From: a bacterium
GTDB lineage: Bacteria > Aerophobota > Aerophobia > Aerophobales > AE-B3A
Reading direction: 5' to 3'
DNA: 64,000 bases
Assembly (NCBI GenBank): GCA_046758525.1
Contig: JBHIAL010000001.1
Location: 667-64,666 of the forward strand
The position numbers were made by a program, and so were the translations under genes. The notes under the pieces are model-generated. The model ran no database searches and was not told where the DNA came from. It was given only the letters and a program-made list of their open reading frames with translations. This document shows positions 3,022 to 49,190 of the stretch, piece by piece (the first letter of the stretch is position 1; every line of letters starts with the position of its first letter).

Positions 3022-3027
3022 TTTTCC

Positions 3028-3057
3028 TTGACATTTAACAGGTGGGTGTTCTAATAT
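3028..3057 (+). promoter_or_regulatory. putative promoter, TTGACA-18-TAATAT
   Basis: TTGACATTT at 3028 is the same extended motif seen at 833 and 16743. TAATAT is at 3052..3057. Confidence 0.3.
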
Positions 3058-3126
3058 ATCCATACAAAAATGTTCACTTGTGTATTCCAGATTTCGCCAT
3101 TAAATATTTAATAAGGAGTGAATTAT

Positions 3127-3171
3127 ATGCCAAAAAAGAAGAAAGCTAAGAAAAATAAAAAGGGTAAATAA
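3127..3171 (+). CDS. 14-aa poly-lysine micro-ORF (MPKKKKAKKNKKGK)
   Basis: Strong SD AAGGAGTG sits 6-7 nt upstream of the ATG. It is too short for the ORF track. Confidence 0.25.
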   Translation: MPKKKKAKKNKKGK

Positions 3172-3193
3172 AAATGTAAGATTAGTAACCCCA

Positions 3194-3505
3194 TTGATTA
3201 TATTATTTTTTTCAATGAAGAGACTATTCAAAAGAAGTGGTAATATAATCTGGATTAACTGCCCTTGTCATCCACAGGCAGACAAGAGTGGCTTTGTACC
3301 CTATCACAGATGGTTAATAGAGAAAGACCAATGTAGATTCCTGAAACCAGATGAAGTAGTTAGGCACAAAAACGGAGACATTTTGGATAATAGATTGTCC
3401 AATCTTGTAATAGATAAAAAATGGGCTTTCAGAGGGGATTGTGGGAATAGGCCCAAGCCACCTACCAAGAAAGAAATTGAGAAGTTCAAGCAAGAGAAAT
3501 TATAA
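3194..3505 (+). CDS. HNH endonuclease
   Basis: CPCH...YHRW...VRHKNGDILDNRLSNL, an HNH_3-type His-Asn-His core. It is adjacent to the terminase. The true start may be the internal Met at 3215. Confidence 0.7.
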   Translation: MIILFFSMKRLFKRSGNIIWINCPCHPQADKSGFVPYHRWLIEKDQCRFLKPDEVVRHKNGDILDNRLSNLVIDKKWAFRGDCGNRPKPPTKKEIEKFKQEKL

Positions 3506-3522
3506 CTACAAAAGGAGTAAAG

Positions 3523-3741
3523 GTGGCATTACCTTACGTGGATGAATATTATTATACACATTATGGGTTTAATGGTTATATAAAAATCAGAACCATAGGT
3601 GGTATTACTACAATCAGAACTGTAAGTAGTGGGAAATATGCGGAAGATAGGGAATCTGTCCCTCCAATACAGACAGGTTTAATTACTATTGATAACAATA
3701 CCAATATAATGAGTGTGTCGACACCATGTGGGAAGGATTAA
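3523..3741 (+). CDS. hypothetical protein
   Basis: 72-aa ORF with SD GGAGTAAAGG upstream. Confidence 0.3.
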   Translation: MALPYVDEYYYTHYGFNGYIKIRTIGGITTIRTVSSGKYAEDRESVPPIQTGLITIDNNTNIMSVSTPCGKD

Positions 3742-3848
3742 TCGAGATAGGAAAAGCCTTTTTAGGACTGACTCTTGTATTTATAATATTAGGAGTAATT
3801 TATTTTATCTTCAAGTATTCGGAAACATGGAAAGGAGGTGAATAAATT

Positions 3849-4064
3849 ATGAAACCAGGTATAAGAAGCAGTGAGTTATGGCTTGGTCTTTTTGGTGCTG
3901 TACTTATGTACCTTAATGATTTTTACGGGTGGGGGTTTGATGTAAAAACAATTGTTGGGACTGTTGCTATTATTGTCGGGTATATCGTTTCCAGAACAGT
4001 TGTCAAGGCAAAACAGATAACCAAAGAGAAGGAGATAGAGCTTGAAAAAGTCAAGACCAAATAA
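3849..4064 (+). CDS. holin-like small membrane protein
   Basis: 71 aa with two predicted TM helices and a highly charged C-terminal tail (KEKEIELEKVKTK). Strong SD AAGGAGGTG. Confidence 0.4.
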   Translation: MKPGIRSSELWLGLFGAVLMYLNDFYGWGFDVKTIVGTVAIIVGYIVSRTVVKAKQITKEKEIELEKVKTK

Positions 4065-4108
4065 GAAGCTGTTAATATTTGTTTCGGTATTCAGTATTGG
4101 AGGGAAAG

Positions 4109-4519
4109 ATGCGATTCCAGAATGATGAAAAGGCTCTTTTTAAATTTTTGGGTTTTATTGCATTAGTATCATTGGTAGGAGCTTTGCTGCTATCGCTTGG
4201 TGGATGCTCTGTAATGACAATTAGAAAACAAAAGTCGATAGTTGACAGGGCAGAGAATGTGTTAATAGAGGCAAATCGTGTTGTTGGTGAGACTTGTAAT
4301 GACCCTGAATCCAGCCCAAAAAAACAGGAATTATGCGAGGTTATACGTGAGGGAATGGCTTTGTTACAGGAGGGACTCGGAGTTTACAGGGAAGTCCTGA
4401 TTGCTGTAGAGAATGGAGAGGCGACTGAAGACAAGGTAGCAGACGCTATTATTGCTGTTGGGCTGCGTGCTACAACACTTGAAATGAGAATCAGAAGATT
4501 AATAGAAACCGTTGATTAG
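4109..4519 (+). CDS. lipoprotein with coiled-coil region (spanin-like or exclusion lipoprotein)
   Basis: Signal peptide plus lipobox, LLLSLGGC. SD GGAGGG lies before the ATG at 4109; the track ORF starts earlier at 4079. The C-terminus is helical. It is adjacent to the holin-like gene. Confidence 0.45.
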   Translation: MRFQNDEKALFKFLGFIALVSLVGALLLSLGGCSVMTIRKQKSIVDRAENVLIEANRVVGETCNDPESSPKKQELCEVIREGMALLQEGLGVYREVLIAVENGEATEDKVADAIIAVGLRATTLEMRIRRLIETVD

Positions 4520-4555
4520 TGTATGTCCCTCATGATAAATTAGCGATAAAAAACA

Positions 4556-4942
4556 ATGACTGTGTCAAGACGATGTGCGTATGACGGGGGTGAAGAAATC
4601 ATAGTTAGTTTAGATAAGCGCATTAAGTATCATACTTTGGAATGCGCCAGGCGAGCGAGGTATTTGAAAAAATGTCAAAGGCAACACAGGAACAAGAAGA
4701 AGGCGGTTTGTAAGAATTGTGGGGAGGAGATACTTACTGAAGGCAGGGTGGGAAGACCAGTGCTGGTTTGCAATAACTGTGCAAAAGCGGAAGTAAGCAG
4801 CAGGAGGGCGATGGCATCGGCAAAGATAAAAGTAAAGGCGAATAGAGTCCAGGAACTGAATATGGGCAAAGGTAGAAGTTATGTTGGTTTTACCAACCGT
4901 TGTGTTGAGTGGCGTGATTGGCTTAGGGATAGAAAGCTATAA
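4556..4942 (+). CDS. basic zinc-ribbon protein, likely nucleic-acid binding
   Basis: 128 aa with CKNCGEE...CNNC and a very basic composition (HRNKKK). It ends ...WLRDRKL inside a 26-nt direct repeat. Confidence 0.4.
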   Translation: MTVSRRCAYDGGEEIIVSLDKRIKYHTLECARRARYLKKCQRQHRNKKKAVCKNCGEEILTEGRVGRPVLVCNNCAKAEVSSRRAMASAKIKVKANRVQELNMGKGRSYVGFTNRCVEWRDWLRDRKL

Positions 4943-4975
4943 GCAAGTAACGAGTAACGAGTAACCTATAACCTA

Positions 4976-5206
4976 ATGTATTCACAAAAAAAGAAATCAA
5001 TTGAGGATGCTTTTTATTTGTTGATAAAAAGGCTGGTTAATTGCAAGTTGGCACATAAGAACGGGGGCGATATGCTTGAGTCCTTGTGGCAGGCACACTC
5101 AATGTACCATGAGTTATTGGTTCTTGTAAACGATTATGAATCTGAAAAAAGAAGATTCGAGGAGTCATTCCGTTTCTGTGTCCCAAGACGAAATGGTACG
5201 GGATGA
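4976..5206 (+). CDS. hypothetical protein
   Basis: 76-aa ORF. It overlaps the next ORF. Confidence 0.25.
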   Translation: MYSQKKKSIEDAFYLLIKRLVNCKLAHKNGGDMLESLWQAHSMYHELLVLVNDYESEKRRFEESFRFCVPRRNGTG

Positions 5207-5363
5207 ATTTATTTTTACCCGTTTATCAAGCGGAATACGATTAAATGGGAATTTTCTGTGGTCAGTAGAGAGTAGGGATACAGGGCTTACGGCATCTGGT
5301 GTTACTAAAGAAGCAGCAGCCAATAGGTTACGAAAGAAAATATGGAAGGCGATAAGAGTATAG
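5136..5363 (+). CDS. hypothetical protein
   Basis: 75-aa ORF in an alternative frame. Confidence 0.2.
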   Translation: MNLKKEDSRSHSVSVSQDEMVRDEFIFTRLSSGIRLNGNFLWSVESRDTGLTASGVTKEAAANRLRKKIWKAIRV

Positions 5364-5503
5364 AGTTGTTTGAGAGGATTGACCGCAAGATGATAAGGGT
5401 GCGTATTCGTAGTATAGTTACAGGGTTGTATAATATTGTGAGCTTAAGCTTTGGACTTCTTTTGTTAATCACTCGTTATTGGCTTAGGGATAGAAAGCTA
5501 TAA
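5342..5503 (+). CDS. 53-aa small protein with C-terminal TM segment, ending ...RYWLRDRKL
   Basis: Read by hand because it is under the 60-aa track cutoff. ATG at 5342. Hydrophobic stretch IVTGLYNIVSLSFGLLLLIT. The last 26 nt are identical to the 3' end of ORF 4556..4942. Confidence 0.2.
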   Translation: MEGDKSIELFERIDRKMIRVRIRSIVTGLYNIVSLSFGLLLLITRYWLRDRKL

Positions 5504-5701
5504 ATGGTAACATTTGAATGTTCTAAGTGTAAATCGTTATGCTTCAGTGAAAAACCAGTAACAACTATTGCCTATAACCATCTTGTTAATGGAGATTATA
5601 TTCCTTATCTGGTTCAGTATATTTGCAGGAATTGTTTTGAGGGGAAGAAGATAGATGCCCGAAATTGGGGATTGCCCACAAGGGAAAGAAATACAAGGTA
5701 A
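5504..5701 (+). CDS. Cys-rich zinc-finger-like small protein
   Basis: CSKCKSLC...CRNC. Confidence 0.3.
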   Translation: MVTFECSKCKSLCFSEKPVTTIAYNHLVNGDYIPYLVQYICRNCFEGKKIDARNWGLPTRERNTR

Positions 5702-5933
5702 TCTTGAGGTCGTGGCGGAAAGGCTGGCAAACTATATAGCTTTCTCCGAAAAGACGATTACCCGTATTGAACATGCCATTGAGTTGTGTACTAAAGAAAC
5801 AAAGGATGGGCTTAAGGAAATAAAAAAGCAAATTGAGGAGAGGAATAAATATAATAGGGTGCTATGGGTTACTATCATTGGTACGGCAACAGGAATAATA
5901 GTAACAAACATTTTCTTCTTGATGGTAAAATGA
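5655..5933 (+). CDS. membrane-anchored hypothetical protein
   Basis: 92 aa with a C-terminal TM helix (VLWVTIIGTATGIIVTNIFFLMV). Confidence 0.3.
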   Translation: MPEIGDCPQGKEIQGNLEVVAERLANYIAFSEKTITRIEHAIELCTKETKDGLKEIKKQIEERNKYNRVLWVTIIGTATGIIVTNIFFLMVK

Positions 5934-5937
5934 TGAA

Positions 5938-6339
5938 ATGTTATTCTTATGCGAAAAATGCGGAAGGATTCGGAAGTTCGGCAAGTGGAGTGAATTACCA
6001 GAGCATTTAATTTTAACTAATGAATTTAAAGCCGTTCCTAAAACAAAGATGACTTGCGATGATTGTAAAGATAAAAAGCTTGGCTTGTCCCGTACCGAAA
6101 TAGTACGGGGCGGGGGCTGTGAAGGACTTAGAGAGGTCAGAAAGCAGGTTGTGAGTATGCGTATCGGAGACTGTCTGGTCGGCGCTTTGCTTCTTGTTTT
6201 GATAATTAGTGTAGTATGGTGCGGTATTGTCTCTTACAAAACATGGGCTGTAATGGAAAAGAGTAAGTGTGTGTGCGATGATAACGGAACGAATCGTGGA
6301 ATTATGCAAAGAGACGGCAATCCAAGCTCTAAAAGATGA
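5938..6339 (+). CDS. zinc-ribbon membrane protein
   Basis: CEKCG...CDDCKDKK and a TM helix. Confidence 0.35.
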   Translation: MLFLCEKCGRIRKFGKWSELPEHLILTNEFKAVPKTKMTCDDCKDKKLGLSRTEIVRGGGCEGLREVRKQVVSMRIGDCLVGALLLVLIISVVWCGIVSYKTWAVMEKSKCVCDDNGTNRGIMQRDGNPSSKR

Positions 6340-6481
6340 TGTGGGCATAAAAGAGGTATTAGACTGTCAGAGGAGTTGGCTTATTGACGAGGCACTTGTG
6401 AGATATGGTACGCAGGCTGAAGCTGCAAAGAAATTAAAAAAGAGCCGTAGGGTTATTAATTATTATTTGAGAGGAAAATAA
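6269..6481 (+). CDS. small HTH DNA-binding protein
   Basis: C-terminal GTQAEAAKKLKKSRRVINYYLRGK resembles a Fis / sigma-region-4-type HTH. Confidence 0.35.
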   Translation: MCAMITERIVELCKETAIQALKDDVGIKEVLDCQRSWLIDEALVRYGTQAEAAKKLKKSRRVINYYLRGK

Positions 6482-6482
6482 A

Positions 6483-7682
6483 ATGGTGGCATCATTCATT
6501 CCTTCAATTTTAGATGAGCTTGATGATGTTGTGATAGCAGCGCCTATTGCAGGACATGTGTTAAGATATGACGGCATGGACTGGAAGAACGCTCAACTTG
6601 CCCATAGCGATTTGTCAGGCTTAGCGAATGATGACCATTCCATCTACACCTTACTTGCAGGCAGGGCTGGTGGACAGACCCTTATTGGCGGTATGGCAGC
6701 CAGCGAAAATCTTACGCTTCAGTCCACATCACATGCCACAAGGGGCAAGATACTCTTTGGTACTTCAGCTTATGACGAGGTAAATAATAGATTAGGTCTT
6801 GGTACGGTTTCACCAGCATCACTGCTTACAGTAGCAGGGAATGCCTCTATAGGCTCAGGATATACAGGTATAGCAGCGCCTGCCAATGGAATGTTGATTG
6901 AAGGTAAAGTTTGGATTGGAACCACATCCCCAACAACAAATTCAGGTGATATGCTTGTAGTACATAGAAGTTCTGCCAATAATCAATTGATAACGCTAAG
7001 AAATACACATGTGGATGGTCTCTCTTCTATAAGATTAGAGGATGAGGCTGGGGCGTTTAAAGGGGATATTGGGTATTATAATAACATAGACAAGATACGG
7101 ATAGGGGGGGCTGGAGTTCCCATGTACTTTGACGGGTCATTAGATTTATTTACTTCCGCTATCCCTGCATCGGAAGCAGACTACACAAAATTATATACAC
7201 GAGATTGGAACGGTCCTGGTACAAATGCGCTATTCATACTATGTGAAGAAAATGTTGCTCATGTTTTTGGTAGCAGTGTAGGCATCGGCACGGCTGCACC
7301 AGATTCTCAAGCAAAAGCAACAATAGCAGGCGGACTTAAAACACAAGCTGATGTAGGTGCGACCCAGTTTAATTGGTTTCCCTATGAAGGCGACTGGAGA
7401 ATCTATTTTCGGTCGCCCGTACAAGTTGATGACGAAATGAAATTTGGGACTACTGGTGTATGGGGAGTTGGCAGCAATGTTGGTATTGGGACCCTTACTC
7501 CAGCCGCATCAGCGCAGCTTGAAATGGTATCTACGTCAAAAGGCTTCTTGCCTCCTCGCATGACGGAAGTACAGCGAGATGCAATATCAAGCCCTGCAGC
7601 AGGACTTGTGGTTTATGTTACTGATGGCACAAATCCAAATAAACTCCACTTTTATAATGGCACGGCATGGGGAGTAGTGTAA
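6483..7682 (+). CDS. fiber-like structural protein with repeated xGIGT(x)P motifs
   Basis: 399 aa. N-terminal HSDLSGLANDDHSIY. Three copies of a motif common in phage tail-fiber repeats: LGLGTVSPASL, VGIGTAAPDSQ, VGIGTLTPAAS. Confidence 0.5.
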   Translation: MVASFIPSILDELDDVVIAAPIAGHVLRYDGMDWKNAQLAHSDLSGLANDDHSIYTLLAGRAGGQTLIGGMAASENLTLQSTSHATRGKILFGTSAYDEVNNRLGLGTVSPASLLTVAGNASIGSGYTGIAAPANGMLIEGKVWIGTTSPTTNSGDMLVVHRSSANNQLITLRNTHVDGLSSIRLEDEAGAFKGDIGYYNNIDKIRIGGAGVPMYFDGSLDLFTSAIPASEADYTKLYTRDWNGPGTNALFILCEENVAHVFGSSVGIGTAAPDSQAKATIAGGLKTQADVGATQFNWFPYEGDWRIYFRSPVQVDDEMKFGTTGVWGVGSNVGIGTLTPAASAQLEMVSTSKGFLPPRMTEVQRDAISSPAAGLVVYVTDGTNPNKLHFYNGTAWGVV

Positions 7683-8053
7683 ATCCCGACGGAACGAATG
7701 AGGTAAAGATTATGATTAAAGTAACAAGACATGAAATTACAAAAGACAAAAATAATAATATTATCAGGGGCGTTATAGGAATTACTTACATCGACACAGT
7801 AACTGGCAAATCTGCATATAGAGACAGGGTGTGGACGGTGGGCAGTCCTGATTCAGATTTCCCCACCGTGCCTACAAAGGCAGAGTTTAGGGCTGCTGTC
7901 AAGTCATGGCTAACTGCTATACCTAAAGATGGTCAATCTATTTTACAAAGTATAAAAGCTTCTATACGAAAAGAAGTAGAAGAATCAATTACGGTGTTTA
8001 AACCAGGAGACCCTGGGTCTATGGTGAATGAAGAAATACAGGAGCCGGTATGA
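7667..8053 (+). CDS. hypothetical protein
   Basis: 128 aa, overlapping the preceding gene by 16 nt. Confidence 0.35.
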   Translation: MGSSVNPDGTNEVKIMIKVTRHEITKDKNNNIIRGVIGITYIDTVTGKSAYRDRVWTVGSPDSDFPTVPTKAEFRAAVKSWLTAIPKDGQSILQSIKASIRKEVEESITVFKPGDPGSMVNEEIQEPV

Positions 8054-8109
8054 GCGAGAATAAGATTAAAGTCAAAGCTGAAACTCCCTTGTGAGGCGGA
8101 AAGTTTGAT

Positions 8110-8301
8110 ATGAAATGTCCTGAGTGTGAGCATGTTAAAACTTGTATTGTAAAGGAATATTTATCTCCTTTAGGCGTTGTGGTTTTTAGGATTCGTGAAT
8201 GTCAAAAATGCAAAACAAAATTTGAGACTACCGAGACAGTAGCATTTTATAATGAACGCAATAAAGGGTTTAAAGGGGTACAAATGCGTTTGCTTTATTA
8301 A
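8110..8301 (+). CDS. zinc-finger small protein
   Basis: CPECEH...CQKCK. Confidence 0.35.
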   Translation: MKCPECEHVKTCIVKEYLSPLGVVVFRIRECQKCKTKFETTETVAFYNERNKGFKGVQMRLLY

Positions 8302-8315
8302 TGGCAGGAAATTAA

Positions 8316-8672
8316 ATGGACAACAACAAGATTAAAGTCAAACTGGAACAGATTAAAAACATCGATAAGGATGGAAAGAGCATTAAAGATAAAGAAGGCA
8401 ATTTGATTTACATCAGGCACGATGCGATTGCCCTATCGCAACTGATAAATGCCGTTGACAGCAAGGTAGTCGCTACTGGCGAATATCCTGCATGGATAGC
8501 GCTTGATGATAAAAGTAGAGAGGCGTTAAAGCAAGATAGGGATGAAATTGAATTGACAGTTGACGAGGCATCCTTTTTGAAGAAACTATTTAGTAATCCC
8601 CAAAATGATAGAGTTACTTTGGGGGTATTCCATGTTAGAACGATTAACGGAATTTTGGAGCAACTAAAATAA
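8316..8672 (+). CDS. hypothetical protein
   Basis: 118 aa. Confidence 0.35.
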   Translation: MDNNKIKVKLEQIKNIDKDGKSIKDKEGNLIYIRHDAIALSQLINAVDSKVVATGEYPAWIALDDKSREALKQDRDEIELTVDEASFLKKLFSNPQNDRVTLGVFHVRTINGILEQLK

Positions 8673-9529
8673 TGCCTTATACATTACTCTTGGCGGTTGG
8701 TTTTGGTTCAACAAAAACAGGGCTTGCTACTGTTGGCTATCAGTTGAAGAACGCTGATGCTACTAATAACGGTACAAGAATTACGGCTGGTATAGTGGAA
8801 GTTGGCAATGGCTACTATCAAGCGTCTGTGTCAATCCCTGATACGCATAGCGGTGGCATTCTCTGGGATACTGGAGAGGCAACGCCAAAGTACGTTTATC
8901 AGGACATTAATCCTGGGGTGGACGAATACACTGATGCAAAGATTTCATCAAGGGCGGTAGGTATGGGAACAGGCGTAAATACCGTTACGATAACCTTAAC
9001 AGAGACAGGCGGGACGCCTGTGATACCAGGTGCAACTGTGTCAGTGAAGAATCAGGCTAATGATACTCTACTTGCAACAGGAACAACAGATGCGAACGGG
9101 CAGGTAGTGTTCATGCTTGATAATGGCACATATTCTGTTGACAAGCAGAAGCTTGGCAGTTACAGCTTCACGAATCCTGAAACCCTTGTTGTTAGTGGCA
9201 ACACCAATCAAAGCTACATCGGCACGCCAATAAGCGTGAGCGCACCTGCACAGCCGAACACGTGCAGAATGTTCATCTGGGCAAGGAATCTTGACGGGAC
9301 ACTTATGACAACGCTCACTGGCAATGTTACAATCATCAAATTGCCCTATACCACGTCAGGCGCTGCTTACCAGAAAGATGACACTATATTTATATTACAT
9401 GCAGATGGTTATTTTTATGTGGACGTAGTTTATGGAGCAACCATTAGTATTTATATACCAGTTCTTGGGGTTGATACCACTCTTGTAGTTCCGTCTCAAA
9501 CTACATACGACCTTGATACCTTAATTTAA
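8672..9529 (+). CDS. structural protein with carboxypeptidase-regulatory-like or Ig-like beta-sandwich domain
   Basis: TVTITLTETGGTPVIPGATVSVKNQANDTLLATGTTDANGQVVFMLDNGTYSV is a typical CarboxypepD_reg-like segment. Confidence 0.4.
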   Translation: MPYTLLLAVGFGSTKTGLATVGYQLKNADATNNGTRITAGIVEVGNGYYQASVSIPDTHSGGILWDTGEATPKYVYQDINPGVDEYTDAKISSRAVGMGTGVNTVTITLTETGGTPVIPGATVSVKNQANDTLLATGTTDANGQVVFMLDNGTYSVDKQKLGSYSFTNPETLVVSGNTNQSYIGTPISVSAPAQPNTCRMFIWARNLDGTLMTTLTGNVTIIKLPYTTSGAAYQKDDTIFILHADGYFYVDVVYGATISIYIPVLGVDTTLVVPSQTTYDLDTLI

Positions 9530-9645
9530 GATAATAGAGGTGATGAATACTATTGCAAAATCATATCTTATATCTGAAAAAGAGAATTCTATCTGTACCA
9601 AGATAAAAAACTACCAAGAATTATTGTTTTAGCATAGGAGCGAAT

Positions 9646-10365
9646 TTGTTGTCTAACAGTATAGTTGATGCTAAAACCATTTCAATTATCCTTCCCACCC
9701 GTAAGCGGGTTAGGAATTTAACACGCCTGATAGATTCTATCATTCAAACAAGTAAATATCCTTCTAACATAGAGATTTGTATCCGTGTTGACCATGACGA
9801 TATGGAATCTGCCTTGGCATTAATTCCTTATTCTGACAAAATAACTATAAAAGTTTGTATTGGCTCCAGGGAAAAATGTTATGGCCATTACTGGAATGAC
9901 GCATGGAGATTAGCCACGGGGGATGTCTTACAAATGAGCGGTGATGATTTTATATACAGAACCAAGGATTGGGATGTTGAGATTCTCAAAGAAATAAATA
10001 AGTTCAATGATAAGATGGTTTTTGTCTATGGTAATGATGGATTTCAGCACGGTAATCTGGGAACTCATTTTTTTATCCATCGTAGATGGGCAGATGCGTT
10101 GGGGGAGTTTGTGCAGATGCACACTAACGTATTTTACCACGACACATGGGCGGATGTTTTGGCAACAAGAATAAATAGAAGAATGTACAGAGATGACCTT
10201 TTCTTTGAGCATGTCCATTGGGTAACTGGTAAAACAGGTAAGGATGTAATTTACGAAACCGCTCAAAAGAATGCAGAATCGGACGCCAGAATATGGGAAG
10301 CAAATTGGCAAGGCCCAGCCATGCAGAGTGATGTCGCCAAATTAAAAAGATTACTGAATGAATAA
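9646..10365 (+). CDS. glycosyltransferase family 2-like
   Basis: TTG start with SD AGGAG. N-terminal ISIILPTRKR resembles the GT2 opening strand. Acidic motifs DHDD and GDD follow. Confidence 0.5.
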   Translation: MLSNSIVDAKTISIILPTRKRVRNLTRLIDSIIQTSKYPSNIEICIRVDHDDMESALALIPYSDKITIKVCIGSREKCYGHYWNDAWRLATGDVLQMSGDDFIYRTKDWDVEILKEINKFNDKMVFVYGNDGFQHGNLGTHFFIHRRWADALGEFVQMHTNVFYHDTWADVLATRINRRMYRDDLFFEHVHWVTGKTGKDVIYETAQKNAESDARIWEANWQGPAMQSDVAKLKRLLNE

Positions 10366-10930
10366 TGTTTTGTCATTATTAATATGTTCCTTAACCAAAA
10401 GGGAATCATCCCTCAGAGAACTTTTATCCTGTTTATCTCCCCAATTGGTAGAGGGAGTGCAGATTCTGGTTAATTCGGATAATGGGAGGAAAGCTGTAGG
10501 GCAAAAAAGGAACGAACTATTAAGAGGCGCAACAGGGAAATATGTTACATTCATAGACGATGACGACCTTGTAAGCGATGATTATGTTTTTCTGATTCTG
10601 GATGCAATCAGGAATGATTGTGATGTTGTTGGCATACATCTTCTTATGACAACCAATGGAATCAAGAATAGCGAATGCAGGACATATCATTCACTCAAAT
10701 ATAAATCATGGTGGGATGAGGAAGACCCAGACAGACCAGGAAGGAGGCGGTATTTCAGGAATCCAAATCATCTGAATCCAGTAAAAAGAGACCTTGCCCT
10801 TGCTACACAGTTTATTGAAATAGATTATGGAGAAGACCACGATTATAGCAAAAGGCTTCTGCCTTTATTGAAAACAGAGGTAAATATAAACGAACCAATC
10901 TATTACTATCAGGTTAAGGGCGTGGAGTAA
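10358..10930 (+). CDS. glycosyltransferase family 2-like
   Basis: YVTFIDDDDLVSDDY is a DXD-type motif. There is an 8-nt overlap with the upstream gene. Confidence 0.5.
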   Translation: MNNVLSLLICSLTKRESSLRELLSCLSPQLVEGVQILVNSDNGRKAVGQKRNELLRGATGKYVTFIDDDDLVSDDYVFLILDAIRNDCDVVGIHLLMTTNGIKNSECRTYHSLKYKSWWDEEDPDRPGRRRYFRNPNHLNPVKRDLALATQFIEIDYGEDHDYSKRLLPLLKTEVNINEPIYYYQVKGVE

Positions 10931-10940
10931 AGGAGTATTT

Positions 10941-11630
10941 GTGGAAGTAATGATTAACCAATCGGCAGGGCTTGGTGATATTTTCTTCTGCCAGAAAATT
11001 GCTATGAAACTTATGGAACTTGGTTATGAAGTTTATTGGCCTGTTATTGAAGAATATAGATATATAAGTAATTATATACATAATGGTGTTATATGGAGAA
11101 TGAGCGAAAAAAAACGTAATGAAATTTATAAATTAGACCTTAGCCATTCTACCAATTATTTTAGGTTCAAGCACAATCAACAGCTTAATGATAATATCAT
11201 GCAAGCTAAATACAAGTATGCAAACAGTCAATTCTCATTTGCAATTGGTGGGTGGGAAGATTGGCAGGATTATCTTAAAATAACAAGAAATTCCGAAGAG
11301 GAGAAAGAACTCGAAGATATTATCCTGAACGGCGTCCCCGACAAGTTTGCGCTTGTGTGCAACCATTTTGCAACTAACTATCTCACTCTCAATAAGAGTA
11401 TAGAATCTGACTTACCAACAGTGGAGATTATCAAGATTCCTAATGTGCCTATTTTTAGTTGGTGCGGAATTATTGAGAAGGCCTCCGAAATAAGAATACC
11501 AGATTCAAGTTTTCCATATCTTGTTGAGGTACTGAATACAACAGATAACCTCTATCTTTATAATAGAAACTACGAATCTAATATACGAACCAAGCCTATA
11601 TGGAAGAAGGGATGGACATTCGTGGAATGA
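10941..11630 (+). CDS. hypothetical protein, possible GT-B/GT9-like transferase
   Basis: AGLGDIFF resembles the GLGD signature of heptosyltransferase-like enzymes. The evidence is weak. Confidence 0.3.
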   Translation: MEVMINQSAGLGDIFFCQKIAMKLMELGYEVYWPVIEEYRYISNYIHNGVIWRMSEKKRNEIYKLDLSHSTNYFRFKHNQQLNDNIMQAKYKYANSQFSFAIGGWEDWQDYLKITRNSEEEKELEDIILNGVPDKFALVCNHFATNYLTLNKSIESDLPTVEIIKIPNVPIFSWCGIIEKASEIRIPDSSFPYLVEVLNTTDNLYLYNRNYESNIRTKPIWKKGWTFVE

Positions 11631-12568
11631 CATTTCTTATCACAGGAATATCTGGCTTTGTTGGTCCCTATTTAGCGAGTCATCTATTAGAGAGGGGACA
11701 TATCGTGTATGGGTTGGCTCACACTAAAACAGACAAGTGTGCGAAAGGTGTGAAATATCTACATGGGGATTTACGTAATATAAATGATTTAGTATCTTTA
11801 CAATCATACAATTTTGCTGGTGTTTTTCATCTTGCAGCATTAACTCACCCACCAACATCATTCAAGGAACCCAGATTGTATTTTGAAACAAATGCACTTG
11901 GGACTGTGAATTTATGCGAAGTCCTTGGAGAAAATAGTATAATTATGCAGTGCAGTAGTCCAGAAGTCTATGGGGTGTGCCCACAAAGAGAAATATTTGA
12001 GTCATTCCCAATGAACCCTGTTTCTCCCTATGCTGTTTCAAAGGCAGCATCTGATTTATATATTCTTGAGCGGACAAAAAGTAAAAGATTAAAGGCATTC
12101 ATTACACGGGCTGGGTCGCATACTGGAGCAGGCAGGCCTTCTTGTTATTCTATTTCTTCAGATGCTGCCCAAATAATAAGAATTAAAAGAGGCTTGCAGA
12201 AGCCTGTACTCAGGGTAGGAAATATTAATTCCCAGAGGGCTGTGATGGATGTTCGAGATGTGGTTGCAGCTTATTATAAATTAATGATTAAATATATACT
12301 GGGGGGAATAAGGAATGGAGATATTTTTCATATAAGTGGGCATAATTTACAGACAATAGAGTATTATATTGACCTTATGATGAATTTGGCAAATGTTAAA
12401 GCGGAAAAGGTAGCTGATAAAAATCTCGTGCGAAGGATAGATATTCCTGTACAGATATTAAACAGTGATAAAACTCGCTCTATTATTTCGTGGAAGCCAA
12501 AAATTCCTATTGAGGAAACTCTTGGAGAGCTACTTGATTATTGGGAGAAGATTATAGATGGGAATTAA
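11627..12568 (+). CDS. GDP-mannose 4,6-dehydratase / GDP-4-keto-6-deoxymannose reductase family (Gmd/Rmd-like extended SDR)
   Basis: Rossmann motif TGISGFVG. Catalytic YAVSK (YxxxK). LRVGNINSQRAVMDVRDVV matches the Gmd-family LRxGNLxAxRDWGxAxDYV block. Translationally coupled to the upstream gene by an ATGA overlap. Confidence 0.65.
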   Translation: MTFLITGISGFVGPYLASHLLERGHIVYGLAHTKTDKCAKGVKYLHGDLRNINDLVSLQSYNFAGVFHLAALTHPPTSFKEPRLYFETNALGTVNLCEVLGENSIIMQCSSPEVYGVCPQREIFESFPMNPVSPYAVSKAASDLYILERTKSKRLKAFITRAGSHTGAGRPSCYSISSDAAQIIRIKRGLQKPVLRVGNINSQRAVMDVRDVVAAYYKLMIKYILGGIRNGDIFHISGHNLQTIEYYIDLMMNLANVKAEKVADKNLVRRIDIPVQILNSDKTRSIISWKPKIPIEETLGELLDYWEKIIDGN

Positions 12569-13610
12569 AGATATTGACTCACATAAGCTGAATTACCATC
12601 CTGAAAGAGTAGCCCAATGGAAGAGTACGGGTTTTTGTTATCCCCTTCATATGGAAGTTGGAATAACTAATGAGTGCAATCACAGGTGTAAACAATGCAC
12701 GCTGGATTGGATAAATCATGGGCAGGATTCTCTTGATGCCCAGATTCTTGTTGAGACATTAAAGGAAGCAAGCAGTCTTGGAGTTAAATCTGTTTACTTT
12801 GCGGGGGAGGGTGAGCCAACTCTTCACAGAGCTTTGGGTTTGTTTGCAAGAACAGCGCATGATTTGGGAATAAAAGTGGCGCTTTCAACCAATGGGTCTT
12901 GTTTATCTACCTTAAAGGATACATTACCCTACTTATCGTGGTTAAGGTTTAGTGTTGATGCCGCAACCGCAGAAACATTCTCAAAAATCCATCGAGTAGA
13001 ACTTTCTGAATTTGATAAGGTTATTTCCAATATAAAGCAATGCGTAGATGTGGTTAAAAATGAGGATTATAAAGTACAGATTGGTATTCAGTCCCTCCTA
13101 ATGCCAGAAAATATAAATGAGATTGAGCCACTTGCCAACATTGCCAAGAATATAGGGGCGCATAATTTCCAAGTGAAACCTGCTCATTGCCACCCTAAAA
13201 GCTCTTATCAGATAACACCCCGCCAGCATTTACAAGATGGGATGCAACAAAGGCTTGAGAAGTTAAACAGTAATACTTTTACAACAATAGTAAGGATTAG
13301 AAGCTTGGAAAGGTTAGGTCAACCCAGAACTTATAATGAATGTCATGCGTTTAACTTCTATTGTCTCATTGATGCTTGTGGAAATTTGTCCCCTTGTAAT
13401 GTTTTTTATGGAAAAGATAATTATATATTTGGTAATATTTATAAGGACAGTCTTCAAGAGATTTGGTCAAGCGACAAGAAGAGAATAATAATAAAGCAAA
13501 TAGCTGAGCTTAAACATTCACTGTGTAAAGATTACAGATGCAGACAGGATGTAATGAATAGGTATCTTGAAAGAGTGAAGAATCCAGAGATTAACGATGA
13601 GTTTATTTAG
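12558..13610 (+). CDS. radical SAM enzyme with C-terminal SPASM/twitch-like Cys cluster
   Basis: CNHRCKQC is a Cx3Cx2C motif. GEGEP is a SAM-binding-like motif. The C-terminal CHAFNFYCLIDACGNLSPC supplies auxiliary-cluster cysteines. Confidence 0.7.
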   Translation: MGIKDIDSHKLNYHPERVAQWKSTGFCYPLHMEVGITNECNHRCKQCTLDWINHGQDSLDAQILVETLKEASSLGVKSVYFAGEGEPTLHRALGLFARTAHDLGIKVALSTNGSCLSTLKDTLPYLSWLRFSVDAATAETFSKIHRVELSEFDKVISNIKQCVDVVKNEDYKVQIGIQSLLMPENINEIEPLANIAKNIGAHNFQVKPAHCHPKSSYQITPRQHLQDGMQQRLEKLNSNTFTTIVRIRSLERLGQPRTYNECHAFNFYCLIDACGNLSPCNVFYGKDNYIFGNIYKDSLQEIWSSDKKRIIIKQIAELKHSLCKDYRCRQDVMNRYLERVKNPEINDEFI

Positions 13611-13621
13611 GAGTAGAATGA

Positions 13622-14590
13622 ATGATTAAAAAGACGGTCTTGGTATGTGGAGCGGGGGGTTTTATAGGCAATCATCTTGTAAAGCGCCTGAAAAAAGACG
13701 GTTATTGGGTAAGGGGAGTGGATTTGAAATACCCAGAATATTCAAAAACTGAAGCGGATAATTTTGTTGTTGGTGATTTAACAGATATTACTTTTTGTCG
13801 AGGGATAATGGATAGACAATTTGATGAGGTATATAACCTCGCTGCTGATATGGGGGGAGCTGAGTATGTATTTACAGGCGATAACGATGCTAATATTATG
13901 TCCAATTCAGTAATGATTAATCTAAACATACTGAATACTTGTTATAAGAGAAACATAAAGCGCCTTTTTTATTCCTCTTCAGCGTGCTGCTATGCAGAAC
14001 ACAACCAGTTAGACCCACATAATCCAAAATGTTCTGAAGATTCTGCCTATCCTGCTAATCCTGACTCTGCCTATGGTTGGGAAAAACTGTTTAGTGAGCG
14101 TCTTTATAATGCCCATCATAGAAATTGTGGTATGGAAGTTAGGATTGGTCGCTATCATAATGTGTTTGGTCCCGAATGTACTTGGTTTGGAGGGAAGGAA
14201 AAAGCACCTGCTGCACTATGTAGGAAAGTGGCTGAAGTTGAATCTGGAGGAGGAATAGAGATATTTGGGGATGGGAAACAAACAAGGTCTTTTCTCTACA
14301 TTGATGAGTGCATTGAAGGTACTATCAGGCTTATGAAGTCGGATTATAATGAACCCATTAACATAGGCTCGGATGAAATGATAACAATAGACGAATTAGC
14401 CAAAAAGATAATGACTATTGCCAAGAAGGAATTAAAAATCAGGCATATAGATGGGCCTCAAGGGGTTAGGGGCAGAAACTCAGATAATACACTGATTAAA
14501 AAGGTCTTAGGCTGGGCTCCATCTGCTTCTTTGGATGAGGGGCTTAGAGTAACATATGACTGGATTTCAAAAAGGAGGGATATAACATGA
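13622..14590 (+). CDS. GDP-mannose 3,5-epimerase homologue (GME family)
   Basis: Block-by-block resemblance to plant GDP-mannose 3',5'-epimerase as I recall it, not an alignment I ran: GAGGFIGNHL; NLAADMGG; SSACCYAE; DSAYGWEKL; RIGRYHNVFGP; GGKEKAPAALCRK; GDGKQTRSF.YIDECIEG; NIGSDEMITI; GPQGVRGRNSDNTLIKKVLGWAP; EGLRVTYDWI. Confidence 0.75.
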   Translation: MIKKTVLVCGAGGFIGNHLVKRLKKDGYWVRGVDLKYPEYSKTEADNFVVGDLTDITFCRGIMDRQFDEVYNLAADMGGAEYVFTGDNDANIMSNSVMINLNILNTCYKRNIKRLFYSSSACCYAEHNQLDPHNPKCSEDSAYPANPDSAYGWEKLFSERLYNAHHRNCGMEVRIGRYHNVFGPECTWFGGKEKAPAALCRKVAEVESGGGIEIFGDGKQTRSFLYIDECIEGTIRLMKSDYNEPINIGSDEMITIDELAKKIMTIAKKELKIRHIDGPQGVRGRNSDNTLIKKVLGWAPSASLDEGLRVTYDWISKRRDIT

Positions 14591-16725
14591 CAGTCGAACA
14601 TACTATTATAATACCTCTGACCACTAACCTTTGTAACTTGAGAGAAACCATAAAGAGTGTAAATGAATACTCAGAAGACCACGAGATTCTGGTTATTGTA
14701 GATGATAGACAAAAGGTAGAATCAGAAATTGTAAAAACTATGGCATCTGTAGTTTGCAAAAAATCTACAATTGGGGAGGCTCTTAATGCTTGCATAGATT
14801 CAGCCAATGGAAAATACATTACAATCTTGAAGGATAATGCACTTGTTTCTCCTAATTGGCTAAATAAACTAAAAAGAACCTTTTTGCTCCCATCTTACAG
14901 ACCAGTTACAATAGCTGCGCCAATTCTGAGTCATACAGTATTTAGTGTCCAACAATGTGAATTCAGTCTGACATCTGGTAATTATATAAAAGCCTTGGAA
15001 GAGCGTAAGTTTAATTATGGATACACTCTTGCAAATCTGGTTTCGGATGTGTGTATTATGTTTGAGAGGACAAATGGGGTGCGCTTTAATGGGACGCTAA
15101 ATTCAGGTGAGATATTTGACGTGGTAGTAAGGAACACGCTCTCTGGAAATATATGTGCAATTAATAAGGGCGTTTTCATATTTGATAAGAGTCCAATAAC
15201 AAAACTTGATAATCTATCAAAGAGTATTATTGCTGTAGCCAAGATACATAACAGGTATCTCACAAGACCCCAAACAATACTGGGGGTAATAAGAACCAAA
15301 ATAACAAATGATTTTGACGCTGAAATATTCAAAATGGTATTGGATAAAACTAAGAGTCTTGTTGATAAAATACTTGTTCTCAATGAGGGACAGGAGTATC
15401 CTTTTGACCTGATAGGAGATATAAATAAACTGGATGTGTCTGAATCAATACATAACGAGAAAGCTTCCGAAGCAATAATCGACAGAATTGAAGAACTTAA
15501 TTGCGACTGGATTTTACACCTGAATGAAAAAGAAGTTTTAGAGGAGTCTATTACAAGGAAGGATTTGGACAGACTTATTTATAACCCTAACCCCCTTATT
15601 CATGGATATGTTTTTCAGGATTATCTATTTGAGGGGACGGACAATAACTACACAGCAAGTCAAGATTCCACCAAGACTGTAGTCCCCAATCTATTCAGAT
15701 ATATTCCAAATAGTAAGCATAGAAATTTTGCTATGCTCTTAAAGATGACTGAAGACTCTTTATGTGTATCAAGCATGAGATATAAACAGTATATAGAGCC
15801 AGCTAAAAATAAACCTGTCTTTACAACGAAGATGTGGAATGCAAATAATAGAATTGACATATGTACTATTATGAAAAATGAGGAGGCCAAATTATTCTGG
15901 TACATGCACAGACATTTTGGCTTTGCCAACAATGTTATACTTATTGACACAGGTTCTACGGACAGCTCCATAGAGTTGGCGAGATTGTTAGGAGCTATTG
16001 TTTATGAAGAAAGGGACGGCTCTAAAGATTTTGCACGAGCAAGGAATACCTATCTCAATAAATCATCTTCAGAATGGATTTTTCATGTTGATTTGGATGA
16101 ATATTGCAGTGATTTGACAGGCATAAGGAAATTGACTGAAGGTACTTGTGATAACTGGTTATTCAAGATTCAAAACAGGCGGAAGGATGGCTCCACTCCT
16201 ACAAGCGAAACCATCAGGCTGTTTCGTAATAAAGAAGGATTATCTTATAAGGGTATAATACATGAAATACTTGATACGCCGAAACCCCCTGCATATTCGC
16301 CCATAATTCTAATCAATGAAGGATTCTTGGAAGATGATGATGTCGTTGCAAGGAAGGTAAAAATGTATCTGGATATGTGCATGATGAGAATCAAACAAGA
16401 CCCAGAGGATGTTCAGGCATTATACTCAGTTGGGATTCATTTGGCAGATGATAATAGATATGAGCTTGCAATAGCAATGCTCAACAAGGCGGTAAGATTG
16501 ATGAGTGAATGGCACTTGCCAAAGAAGGAACTGGCAGTTACATATCTGCATTTTGGTAAACAATTATATAAAGAGCTTGTTGATATGTTGCCTGCCCACC
16601 ATCCTGACAGACTGGAATATGTAAAAGTATTTGAGTTTCTAAACAACGCATTCAAACCAAGAATAATAGATGTTGTCAGTATTACAAAAGATATATCTGA
16701 CGAGGATATAATGAAGATTTTATAA
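14587..16725 (+). CDS. multidomain glycosyltransferase: N-terminal GT-like domain, central GT2 domain, C-terminal TPR-like repeats
   Basis: 712 aa. ICTIMKNEE...LIDTGSTD...DLDEY is a GT2 signature. The C-terminus is helical and repeat-like (ALYSVGIHLADDNRYELAIAMLNKAV). ATGA overlap with the epimerase gene. Confidence 0.55.
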   Translation: MTVEHTIIIPLTTNLCNLRETIKSVNEYSEDHEILVIVDDRQKVESEIVKTMASVVCKKSTIGEALNACIDSANGKYITILKDNALVSPNWLNKLKRTFLLPSYRPVTIAAPILSHTVFSVQQCEFSLTSGNYIKALEERKFNYGYTLANLVSDVCIMFERTNGVRFNGTLNSGEIFDVVVRNTLSGNICAINKGVFIFDKSPITKLDNLSKSIIAVAKIHNRYLTRPQTILGVIRTKITNDFDAEIFKMVLDKTKSLVDKILVLNEGQEYPFDLIGDINKLDVSESIHNEKASEAIIDRIEELNCDWILHLNEKEVLEESITRKDLDRLIYNPNPLIHGYVFQDYLFEGTDNNYTASQDSTKTVVPNLFRYIPNSKHRNFAMLLKMTEDSLCVSSMRYKQYIEPAKNKPVFTTKMWNANNRIDICTIMKNEEAKLFWYMHRHFGFANNVILIDTGSTDSSIELARLLGAIVYEERDGSKDFARARNTYLNKSSSEWIFHVDLDEYCSDLTGIRKLTEGTCDNWLFKIQNRRKDGSTPTSETIRLFRNKEGLSYKGIIHEILDTPKPPAYSPIILINEGFLEDDDVVARKVKMYLDMCMMRIKQDPEDVQALYSVGIHLADDNRYELAIAMLNKAVRLMSEWHLPKKELAVTYLHFGKQLYKELVDMLPAHHPDRLEYVKVFEFLNNAFKPRIIDVVSITKDISDEDIMKIL

Positions 16726-17003
16726 ACAATCGGAGAAATTGCTTGACATTTTAATTATTTGTGTTTTTATTATGTGTAAGTGAGTATGCTAACGCAGTTT
16801 ACAATTGAAAAGATTAAAAGGGTTGTACAAGAGGAGGAGTCAAGAATCACTAACAACGATTTCTGTGGTTCTATAAGTATTAAACTGAATTTTCTTCATG
16901 GTTTGGTAAGGACGGTCGAAACATCCATAAACCAACATGAGCAACTCAAGAACTAAAATTTAAAATATATTAAAAATCTCATTAGCTTTACCAAAGCCTG
17001 AGA

Positions 17004-17046
17004 TGGGTAATTAATCTACCTGTCTTGGGCTTTTTTATTGGAATAA
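17004..17046 (+). terminator. possible rho-independent terminator (G·U-containing stem plus T tract)
   Basis: AGCCUGAGAUGGG pairs with CCUGUCUUGGGCU as RNA in a 13-bp stem with 4 wobble pairs, followed by UUUUUAUU. This is weak and lies immediately before the portal ATG. Confidence 0.25.
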
Positions 17047-17047
17047 A

Positions 17048-20802: not shown

Positions 20803-20840
20803 GAAGCCCTGCTCTTGTCAGGGTGGGGCTTCTCTTTATA
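20803..20840 (+). terminator. rho-independent terminator after major capsid gene
   Basis: Sequence gaagCCCTGctcttgtCAGGGtggggcttc. The inner stem is CCCTG/CAGGG and the outer stem is GAAG/CTTC, followed by TCTCTTTAT. Confidence 0.5.
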
Positions 20841-49076: not shown

Positions 49077-49112
49077 TTAACCACGCTCTCCCATTTAATA
49101 TCGTGAAAAATC

Positions 49113-49190
49113 TGGTCAGGGAGGGAGGATTTGAACCTCCGACCTCCTGCTTCCAAGGCAGGCACGCTAACCAGACTGCGCTACTCCCTG
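49113..49190 (-). tRNA. tRNA-Pro (anticodon TGG) with encoded CCA
   Basis: Reverse complement reads CAGGGAG-TA-GCGC-AGTCTGGTTA-GCGT-G-CCTGC-CTTGGAA-GCAGG-AGGTC-GGAGG-TTCAAAT-CCTCC-CTCCCTG-A-CCA. This is a full cloverleaf with a 7-bp acceptor stem, a T-loop TTCAAAT and a UGG anticodon. Confidence 0.8.

Follow-up and report, generated by a model that had tools for sequence, protein, structure and literature searches.

A clade-wide interval between the large terminase and portal genes of an uncultivated HK97-type siphovirus, with a putative protein-glycosylation cassette

Introduction

The stretch of DNA analysed here, hereafter ‘the window’, comprises 64,000 nucleotides of contig JBHIAL010000001.1 (GenBank assembly GCA_046758525.1, positions 667 to 64,666; GTDB phylum Aerophobota) and encodes an HK97-type siphovirus. 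The source phage is uncultivated and known only from metagenomic contigs. Our subject is the exact gap between its genes for the large terminase subunit (TerL) and the portal protein, which spans window positions 3022-17047 and holds approximately 25 open reading frames (ORFs), all on the + strand. We describe this gap as a composite interval extending across a small phage clade, in which a gene for an HNH endonuclease, a zone of gene turnover, and a set of predicted glycosylation enzymes form three layers, the last of which likely places its glycan on a virion protein; we rate this description, taken as a whole, as somewhat better than an even bet. Relatives for comparison came from a large protein collection, and two of them are designated relA and relB below.

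The interval and its boundaries

The genes that delimit the interval, together with their immediate neighbours, are as follows:

869-1480, + strand: small terminase candidate (TerS), 32% identical to the relA gene at the matching position
1483-3021, + strand: large terminase TerL (PF03354, E 9e-11), the left boundary
17048-18358, + strand: portal (PF04860, E 2.8e-62), the right boundary
18270-19487: prohead protease, the next gene after the portal gene
19514-20779: HK97-type capsid protein (PF05065, E 1.5e-54)

The tblastn matches of TerL are annotated large terminases. Residues K14, N16, and R17 of the portal protein are invariant in nine homologues, which supports the ATG at 17048 as the start of its gene. 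A sequence-only reading of the same DNA had separated TerL and portal genes by 14 kb, placed the portal gene at 17048, and considered so large a gap unusual in HK97-type head modules. Each of these statements is upheld, with TerL ending at 3021 and the portal gene beginning at 17048. Every item of that reading's gene list was found as well, at varying support, with approximately 25 ORFs in place of its approximately 20. As these genes are co-oriented with the packaging and head genes, they are presumably expressed late.

The glycosylation cassette

The right half of the interval (9646-16725) encodes seven predicted soluble proteins, which together contain five glycosyltransferase (GT) domains, two short-chain dehydrogenase/reductase (SDR) enzymes, and one radical SAM/SPASM enzyme:

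9646-10365, + strand: small, soluble GT2 glycosyltransferase (PF00535; PHROG glycosyltransferase 4e-32), 76% identical in relA
10358-10930, + strand: small, soluble GT2 glycosyltransferase (PF00535; PHROG glycosyltransferase 1e-35), 71% identical in relA
10941-11630, + strand: compact GT-B/GT9-like protein of 229 aa (by predicted fold), with a relA counterpart of 227 aa (69%)
11600-12568, + strand: extended SDR of the GDP-sugar 4,6-dehydratase / 4-reductase type (PF16363, 3e-45), 67% identical in relA
12558-13610, + strand: radical SAM enzyme with a SPASM domain (PF04055 7e-14; PF13186 1.3e-8), 70% identical in relA
13622-14590, + strand: GDP-mannose 3,5-epimerase homologue, 72% identical in relA
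14587-16725, + strand: double GT of 712 aa with two GT2 domains (PF00535 matched twice)

None of the seven proteins contains a transmembrane (TM)-like segment, and domain screens of 3022-17047 recognised no flippase, polymerase, or polyprenyl-phosphate GT. The locus thus presents phage-encoded soluble GTs beside structural genes, with five TM-free GT domains lying between TerL and portal on the late strand.

The two SDR enzymes point to GDP-linked sugars. The enzyme at 11600-12568 matches GDP-D-glycero-D-manno-heptose 4,6-dehydratase (3.6e-43) and GDP-6-deoxy-D-lyxo-4-hexulose reductase (2.3e-39) in the PDB. The epimerase homologue matches plant GDP-mannose 3',5'-epimerase (2c59) over its full length (residues 6-318; 1.5e-96, 327 bits), with the next family, UDP-glucuronate decarboxylase, reaching only 6.5e-29, and has approximately 60% identical relatives in many cyanomyophages. 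The radical SAM/SPASM enzyme, for which every NCBIfam match falls far under its cutoff and the PDB matches (BtrN, PqqE, BlsE) are weak, is presumed to tailor a sugar nucleotide. The 229-aa protein has no Pfam or PDB sequence match, even when a 41-sequence profile is used. It has 644 homologues, and its AlphaFold2 (AF2) model (pLDDT 93.6) finds GT9 heptosyltransferases (3tov, WaaC, TibC) as top Foldseek matches, at E 2e-5 to 1e-2 and TMq 0.5-0.58; on this predicted fold, it is a probable further glycosyltransferase.

The double GT is the sole cassette gene present in all three clade members (56% identical in relA and 33% in relB). Its C-terminal domain consists of a GT-A fold, with PF00535 matching over residues ~422-643, plus a helical domain. 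A phmmer search against the PDB gave GmaR (5e-14), ThuS (9e-9), and SunS (4e-6), and nothing else below 0.01. Foldseek, given the AF2 model of residues 420-690 (pLDDT 70-90 throughout), returned SunS/ThuS at 4e-17 and, as the next class, K4CP at 3e-10, approximately seven orders weaker. Both aspartates of the DxD motif (D502/D504) are unchanged throughout 11 homologues and the three clade members. Remote homologues of the double GT are GT2-TPR fusions.

The enzymes that the C-terminal half resembles most in sequence and fold, i.e. the Listeria flagellin O-GlcNAc transferase GmaR and the glycocin S-/O-glycosyltransferases SunS and ThuS, are soluble and act on folded proteins or peptides, GmaR being the enzyme that glycosylates flagellin (PMC9638930). 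They share with the phage protein the arrangement of a GT-A (GT2) domain followed by a helical/TPR-like substrate-binding region. They differ from it in that identity is only ~17-28%; in that the phage protein has an extra N-terminal GT2 domain and a middle region of ~300 residues; and in that the phage locus is without a glycocin precursor, an exporter, or a MogR-type partner. By sequence and fold, then, the double GT resembles SunS/ThuS/GmaR enzymes yet is not a SunS equivalog. A tblastn search of 50,697 phage records with the double GT yielded five weak partial matches, none of them from a mycobacteriophage.

Three other roles for the cassette have to be weighed against protein glycosylation. 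The first concerns the host surface, which prophage TarP and Gtr-type serotype-conversion genes are known to alter. The cassette might similarly remodel envelope glycans or surface proteins of the host (lipopolysaccharide (LPS), wall polymers, or an S-layer glycoprotein), thereby masking receptors or excluding superinfecting phages. Wall-polymer GTs of the TarP, RmlT, and TarS type do appear among the fold matches (1e-8 to 1e-6), the GT9-like fold resembles LPS heptosyltransferases, and sugar-nucleotide clusters are commonly carried by cyanophages. However, the cassette proteins lack TM segments and the accompanying flippase, polymerase, and polyprenyl-phosphate GT; the genes are situated within the late packaging/head region rather than near lysogeny or early genes; and the best matches of the conserved GT are, by a wide margin, protein/peptide GTs. 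We consider a role in envelope remodelling unlikely.

The second possibility is hypermodification of phage DNA with sugars, of the glycosylated 5-hydroxymethylcytosine or 5-hydroxymethyluracil (5hmC/5hmU) type, as a protection against restriction. Phage GT-A enzymes can glycosylate DNA, and related contigs sometimes have epimerases or lie near terminase genes (bioRxiv 10.1101/2023.12.21.572611). Additionally, the GT2 enzyme at 9646-10365 matches a PHROG labelled DNA methyltransferase (2.6e-12), a match that most likely arises via a fused domain in that family. In the systems known to hypermodify DNA, the GT is clustered with a C5-methyltransferase and a 5mYOX/TET enzyme, or with a thymidylate-synthase (ThyS)-like hydroxymethylase (bioRxiv 10.1101/2023.12.21.572611). 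Among the window ORFs screened, no C5-methyltransferase, 5mYOX/TET enzyme, or thymidylate-synthase-like hydroxymethylase was found, and the methylase recognised is of the N6/N4 type. The cassette is moreover distant from the replication module (47-64 kb), and its best GT matches are protein/peptide GTs. DNA glycosylation is accordingly rejected for want of its defining neighbour genes among these ORFs, and we regard it as very improbable.

The third possibility takes the SunS-like GT and the radical SAM/SPASM enzyme as maturation enzymes that turn a Cys-rich mini-protein into a secreted, glycocin-like ribosomally synthesised and post-translationally modified peptide, much as the SPbeta prophage makes the glycopeptide sublancin. 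SunS and ThuS are indeed the top fold matches, peptide maturation is frequent among SPASM enzymes, and several Cys-rich small ORFs lie upstream. Those Cys-rich proteins nevertheless resemble CxxC...CxxC zinc ribbons (one is NrdR-type, 8e-8) and have not been conserved together with the GT in relA or relB; the relB GT occurs without a radical SAM enzyme; and no precursor, ABC exporter/peptidase, thiol-disulfide oxidoreductase, or immunity gene was recognised in 3022-17047. With these defining neighbours missing, the glycocin-like role is rejected too, and we regard it as very improbable. Protein glycosylation ranks above the envelope, DNA, and glycocin roles because each of these lacks the neighbour genes that would define it.

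Gene order in relatives

A megablast search with 24 kb of the window against 50,697 phage records returned no match, and single-protein scans of IMG/VR with TerL and the portal protein detected no relatives. Portal-profile scans of metagenome and viral contigs recovered relA again and otherwise only relatives at ≤29% identity. A TerL homologue (P0006, 30% identical) occurs in an integrase-rich element without a portal gene, a context that is uninformative. The relA sequence, a merger of two overlapping loci (L001 and L005, with 3,135 nt of identical overlap), is the only one that covers the whole interval.

The TerL-portal interval of relA measures 16.9 kb and follows the same plan as that of the window: TerL, an extra 65-aa ORF, a metallophosphatase, HNH, small ORFs, GT2, GT2, the 227-aa protein, SDR, radical SAM/SPASM enzyme, four extra genes, SDR, double GT, a 54-aa ORF, and portal. 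Cassette identities (56-76%) are about level with those of the capsid and other core genes (58-69%: TerL 61%, portal 65%, capsid 69%, protease 58%). In relB, the portal protein is 64% identical and a 785-aa double GT (33%) ends 21 nt before the portal gene. Homologues of the 128-aa, 146-aa, 133-aa, 118-aa, and 285-aa proteins of the window are present in relB; sugar-nucleotide genes are absent from the 5.7 kb recovered upstream of its portal gene. Differences among the three phages are therefore nested: a sugar-nucleotide block of ~5 kb is found in the window and relA and not in the recovered part of relB, a 3.4-kb block is found in relA only, and fibre and Ig-like genes are variably present.

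The relA-specific block (L005 3127-6582) lies between the radical SAM/SPASM and epimerase genes, and its four genes encode proteins of 114, 299, 429, and 310 aa, of which the 429-aa product is a B12-binding radical SAM enzyme. This content suggests further sugar tailoring, e.g. C-methylation.

The sequence-only reading had proposed that the interval is an inserted accessory island, to be checked by its GC or k-mer profile and by the gene order of related phages. A recently acquired, dispensable, mobile, moron-like island that split a formerly adjacent TerL-portal pair would agree with the more distant portal relatives in which TerL adjoins the portal gene, with a left half that is mostly not common to relatives, with local scars of duplication or insertion, and with the presence of promoter-like motifs belonging to the interval itself. 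Composition, however, is that of the rest of the phage. GC fraction ranges from 0.34 to 0.43 both within and beyond the interval, and tetranucleotide distances of interval windows (12.5-19.4) bracket the mean of the whole window (16.3, sd 2.7), with the cassette among its most typical segments. No direct or inverted repeats bracket 3022-17047, and no integrase, transposase, or recombinase domain was found in its ORFs. The layout and the cassette are common to a relative at ~61-65% core identity, in which the cassette is as conserved as the core.

The outgroup that might date an insertion does not do so cleanly. In chromosomes of Brocadiales metagenome-assembled genomes (MAGs), genes for portals 47-51% identical to that of the window close a TerS-TerL-portal trio, with TerL immediately before portal; however, the Brocadiales TerL and TerS are unrelated to their window counterparts, so that the event is not cleanly polarised. 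As the portals are related and the terminases are not, the terminase and portal modules must differ in history, and the interval stands at the joint between them.

For the cassette, the insertion proposal is largely refuted because relA shares the gene order with conserved sequence, and we find a recent mobile island improbable for the interval as a whole. What stands of the proposal is its plasticity: the left half is mostly unshared, and indels are nested in and around the cassette. The interval is a layout common to a small clade that has been maintained at a module joint while changing by nested gain and loss; it is not a recent insertion.

The Brocadiales/Brocadiia trios (L009 8022-11197; L012 765-3776; L013 6243-9195; L014 3080-6075; and L010) merit description on their own. 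Each comprises a TerS-like gene (HTH_Tnp_1_2), a TerL-like gene, and a portal gene, with no protease or capsid genes after them. The chromosomal site is syntenic, lying between a PGK-GDH fusion gene (upstream) and genes for UDP-glucose dehydrogenase and an epimerase (downstream). The trio looks like a conserved fossil or a domesticated packaging module, and its occurrence hints at the host range of the phage.

Mosaicism extends to the tail. The tail tube gene of the window (Phage_tube_2, 22808-23812) has a 51% identical counterpart in relB (L008 10508-11509), whereas relA, though closer in capsid and cassette, has an unrelated 403-aa gene in this place (L005 15065-16276). Since the tail tube is common to relB and replaced in relA, the tail module is mosaic too.

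Promoter-like sites, leader, and terminator

Both edges of the interval carry signals that resemble transcription start or stop sites, and a site of the same motif family (P1) lies outside it:

832-868, + strand: promoter-like site P1 (CTTGACATTT, 17 nt, TATAAG), just before the TerS gene; relA equivalent at L001 8985
3027-3057, + strand: promoter-like site P2 (CTTGACATTT, 18 nt, TAATAT), 6 nt past the TerL stop and before the HNH gene
16742-16775, + strand: promoter-like site P3 (CTTGACATTT), after the double GT gene; relA ortholog at L005 9728
16786-16956, + strand: leader ORF of 56 aa (phrog_9568, 1.3e-3), its status as a gene uncertain
16993-17033, + strand: intrinsic-terminator-like hairpin of 17 pairs, then a U tract, 14 nt before the portal ATG

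The motif TTGACATTT occurs at 833, 3028, and 16743 of the window, and its count is not significant in this genome alone (four matches vs 1.75 expected; 11 of 100 shuffles reach four). The 10-mer CTTGACATTT has exactly three copies in 64 kb, all of them on the + strand and intergenic. It is given weight on account of its orthologous conservation and not of its single-genome count: relA carries the motif at three orthologous places, with a common GGTG...TAATAT-like downstream part. P2 has 10/12 consensus matches, and its relA ortholog (12941) lies directly before the relA HNH gene.

At the position of the leader ORF, relA has an ORF of 54 aa. The two share a GS(I/V)S(I/V)xL motif only, and BLASTP between them gives no significant similarity. 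Hairpins ahead of the portal gene have fold z-scores of -4.85 in the window, -5.33 in relA, and -3.76 in L015. When the window and relA stems are aligned by hand, approximately three compensatory pairs are seen; an automatic three-sequence alignment retains only one. The P3-leader-terminator unit is not found in relB.

The conserved P3, the leader of ~250 nt, and the strong hairpin directly before the portal gene suggest that the interval and the head-tail operon are separate transcription units. The promoter-like motifs at 3028 and 16743 on which the sequence-only reading had based autonomous transcription are thus present, and are conserved at orthologous positions in relA; together with the terminator, the conserved P2 and P3 fit separate units, which says nothing of recency.

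In the PR'-tR' late leader of phage lambda, antitermination by Q controls the late structural operon. The arrangement here is alike in having a strong intrinsic terminator, preceded by a promoter and a short leader, immediately before a long late structural operon (here ~30 kb), and different in that the terminase genes lie upstream of the unit and the leader may encode a 56-aa peptide. No Pfam or PHROG match to a Q-like antiterminator was obtained and no qut site was identified; several small basic zinc-ribbon proteins occur in the window.

A second strong hairpin (20803-20832; 13 pairs, seven of them G-C) lies just past the capsid stop at 20779 and is probably an attenuator that reduces expression of downstream genes.

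The HNH gene and the variable left half

The left half of the interval contains the following features:

3194-3505, + strand: HNH endonuclease (PHROG HNH 1.6e-9; PF13392 2.2e-5, just under the Pfam cutoff)
3523-6481, + strand: fast-evolving segment of small genes
3849-4064, + strand: holin-like TM protein (phrog_9987, 1.8e-4, weak)
4079-4519, + strand: lipobox-like protein (LSLGGC), called from sequence only
4556-4942, + strand: basic 8-Cys protein
5504-5701, + strand: zinc-ribbon-like Cys-rich protein
5655-5933, + strand: protein with a C-terminal TM segment
5938-6339, + strand: Cys-rich TM protein
6269-6481, + strand: helix-turn-helix (HTH)-like protein
6483-7682, + strand: fibre-like protein of 399 aa (phrog_9729 tail fibre, 1.4e-4, residues 8-40; precomputed PF26696 PTL_trimer)
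7667-8053, + strand: 128-aa protein, relB homologue at 34%
8110-8301, + strand: 63-aa NrdR-type zinc-ribbon protein (PF22811, 8.4e-8)
8316-8672, + strand: 118-aa protein, relB homologue at 37%
8672-9529, + strand: Ig-like/prealbumin-like protein of 285 aa, Ser/Thr-rich (21%) (CarboxypepD_reg 3e-7, SdrD_B 5e-5, both below cutoff)

For the HNH gene, the ATG at 3215 is the likely start; its relA counterpart (54% identical) likewise follows P2. The gene product is small, and the gene adjoins the terminase in an HK97-type head module and is conserved with it, as would be expected of a packaging HNH protein of the gp74 kind. HK97 gp74, whose gene is likewise a close neighbour of the terminase genes, is a small HNH protein too and stimulates cos cleavage by TerL (PMC9410871). 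The HNH gene described here differs in following TerL, with a promoter-like site of its own in front. By analogy, its product is probably a packaging accessory nuclease, and thus part of the packaging machinery rather than accessory cargo. Between P2 and the HNH gene lies a tiny Lys-rich ORF, MPKKKKAKKNKKGK (3128-3172), preceded by a strong AAGGAG Shine-Dalgarno sequence.

Across 3523-6481, weak relA/relB homologues (27-36%) exist only for the 146-aa, 133-aa, and 70-aa proteins. The fibre-like protein has no PDB sequence match and is not in the recovered parts of relA and relB. The Ig-like protein likewise has no PDB sequence match; it is 58% identical to the product of the relB gene directly upstream of the relB double GT. 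It may be a decoration or fibre protein of the virion and might also accept the glycan.

Two repeat pairs were observed in this half. A 30-nt direct repeat (97% identical; 4913-4942 and 5474-5503) coincides with the 3' ends of two small ORFs, which share the C-terminus WLRDRKL, and may be a recombination boundary within the variable segment. The zinc-ribbon gene (63 aa) is bracketed by the direct repeats 8050-8083 and 8316-8349, of which the first duplicates, in shortened form, the beginning of the 118-aa gene (MSENKIKVK vs MDNNKIKVK); the pair looks like the footprint of a one-gene insertion.

The remainder of the window

Downstream of the capsid gene follow connector proteins and the tail tube, then a 1302-aa ORF (25658-29566) that has the size of a tape-measure gene, and distal tail proteins and large fibre-like ORFs that reach ~42 kb. 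At 41-47 kb, neither an endolysin nor any other lysis gene was recognised. The replication module occupies the minus strand at 47-64 kb and encodes a ribonucleotide reductase, a primase-domain protein, an AAA/SMC-like ATPase, a metallophosphatase, RecA, a fusion of uracil-DNA glycosylase and PolA, and DnaB.

An N6/N4 DNA methylase (44297-46441; PF01555, 1.8e-38) is matched in two stretches, split by a LAGLIDADG_3 domain, and is probably a methyltransferase containing an intein. The family A DNA polymerase with a 3'-5' exonuclease domain (58140-60359) has a uracil-DNA glycosylase superfamily domain fused at its N-terminus. The ribonucleotide reductase (47076-49190) has a C-terminal TSCPD domain and adjoins a tRNA-Pro(TGG) gene (49113-49190), which was the sole match in an Rfam search. 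The ~2 kb seen past the end of the window contained nothing relevant.

A proposed pathway and its place among known systems

To date, few phages, e.g. mycobacteriophage Che8, have been shown to encode protein glycosylation, and virion glycans influence immune recognition of phages. For the locus described here, late protein glycosylation, probably of the virion, is the explanation that best suits the predicted enzymes and their neighbourhood. We envisage an interval of three layers. In the first, the HNH endonuclease behind P2 would assist cutting by the terminase, as does HK97 gp74. In the second, small membrane, zinc-ribbon, and fibre/Ig-like genes turn over rapidly, as comparison with relatives indicates, and would do so by local gain, loss, and duplication. 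The third would be a conserved, self-contained, cytoplasmic glycosylation module. In this module, the two SDR enzymes and the radical SAM/SPASM enzyme would convert a GDP-manno-configured sugar of the host, either GDP-mannose or a GDP-heptose, into rarer sugars; the five GT domains, one of which is of the protein-directed GmaR/SunS/ThuS type, would assemble a short glycan. The acceptor would most likely be a co-produced virion protein; the capsid and tail tube proteins and the neighbouring Ser/Thr-rich Ig-like protein are the candidates. The outcome would be a glycan-coated particle, its glycan having been built in the cytoplasm late in infection.

A number of considerations weigh against this proposal. 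The enzymology and the acceptor, like all functional statements made here, are deduced from sequence, and the timing of expression from position and promoter motifs only. The SunS model of NCBIfam (TIGR04195) scores the double GT at 38.7 bits, against an equivalog cutoff of 350; in the window and in relA alike, the first GT2 domain of the double GT carries KDN, a degenerate form of the DxD motif; and the middle of the 712-aa model is of low confidence. GT-A enzymes acting on wall teichoic acid or DNA are structural neighbours too (TarP at ~1e-8), and DNA-glycosylating phage GT-A enzymes resemble TarP (bioRxiv 10.1101/2023.12.21.572611). A base-modification enzyme could be encoded in the ~13 kb of the 76.9-kb source contig that lie beyond the window. 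Finally, usable context is provided by two relatives only, and the contig of relB begins 5.7 kb upstream of its portal gene.

Three known kinds of virus-encoded glycosylation invite comparison. The first is that of mycobacteriophage Che8 and other Cluster F1 phages, the GTs of which are thought to glycosylate capsid proteins in the cytoplasm, forming a glycan coat (Freeman et al. 2023, as cited in PMC11256854); their GT genes are near the right genome end and not between TerL and portal (PMC11256854). The likeness consists in phage-encoded GTs. No homology to the mycobacteriophage systems was detected in the tblastn search with the double GT, and the cassette adds enzymes for nucleotide-sugar tailoring and radical SAM chemistry.

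In capsid glycosylation by chloroviruses and giant viruses, the virus itself supplies several soluble GTs as well as enzymes that convert nucleotide sugars in the GDP-mannose pathway, so that its glycan does not depend on the glycosylation systems of the host (PMC9614988). Chloroviruses differ in having eukaryotic hosts and unrelated capsids and GTs, and in using GMD and GMER, whereas the phage cassette, for which the evidence is genomic, has a 3,5-epimerase, an Rmd/heptose-dehydratase-like SDR, and a radical SAM enzyme. Synechococcus phage S-H68 and other cyanophages have a GDP-mannose 3,5-epimerase homologue at ~60% identity, and the multi-gene sugar cluster of S-H68 adjoins structural (tail fibre) genes; these cyanophages, however, are T4-like myoviruses with a dTDP/CDP pathway and GT11, and their cluster is not between TerL and portal. 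On gene content, the position, the enzyme set, and the SunS/GmaR-like GT set the locus apart from known virus-encoded glycosylation systems. The layout is rare, and the module is coherent.

A more specific and rather doubtful version of the proposal can be put forward: that the clade consists of siphoviruses infecting anammox Planctomycetota (on the basis of the 47-51% identical Brocadiales portals only); that virion O-glycosylation is self-sufficient, with a radical-SAM-tailored, GDP-derived sugar of the L-galacto, 6-deoxy, or heptose type being attached by a flagellin-GT/glycocin-GT-like enzyme; and that the head-tail operon is gated in a lambda-Q-like manner. If true, a phage pathway for protein glycosylation equipped with nucleotide-sugar and radical SAM chemistry of its own would be a first.

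For phage genome organisation, the interval is an example of how the normally rigid TerL-portal junction can hold a long-lived, modular, separately transcribed region, and it cautions that position alone is insufficient for calling such regions recent islands. The practical value of the locus is modest until a host or an expression system exists. If protein glycosylation is its true role, the locus would join sugar-nucleotide tailoring, including a radical SAM step, with five GT domains and a protein-directed GT, and would represent a different and more complete version of phage glycosylation, conserved in a phage lineage of uncultivated bacteria.

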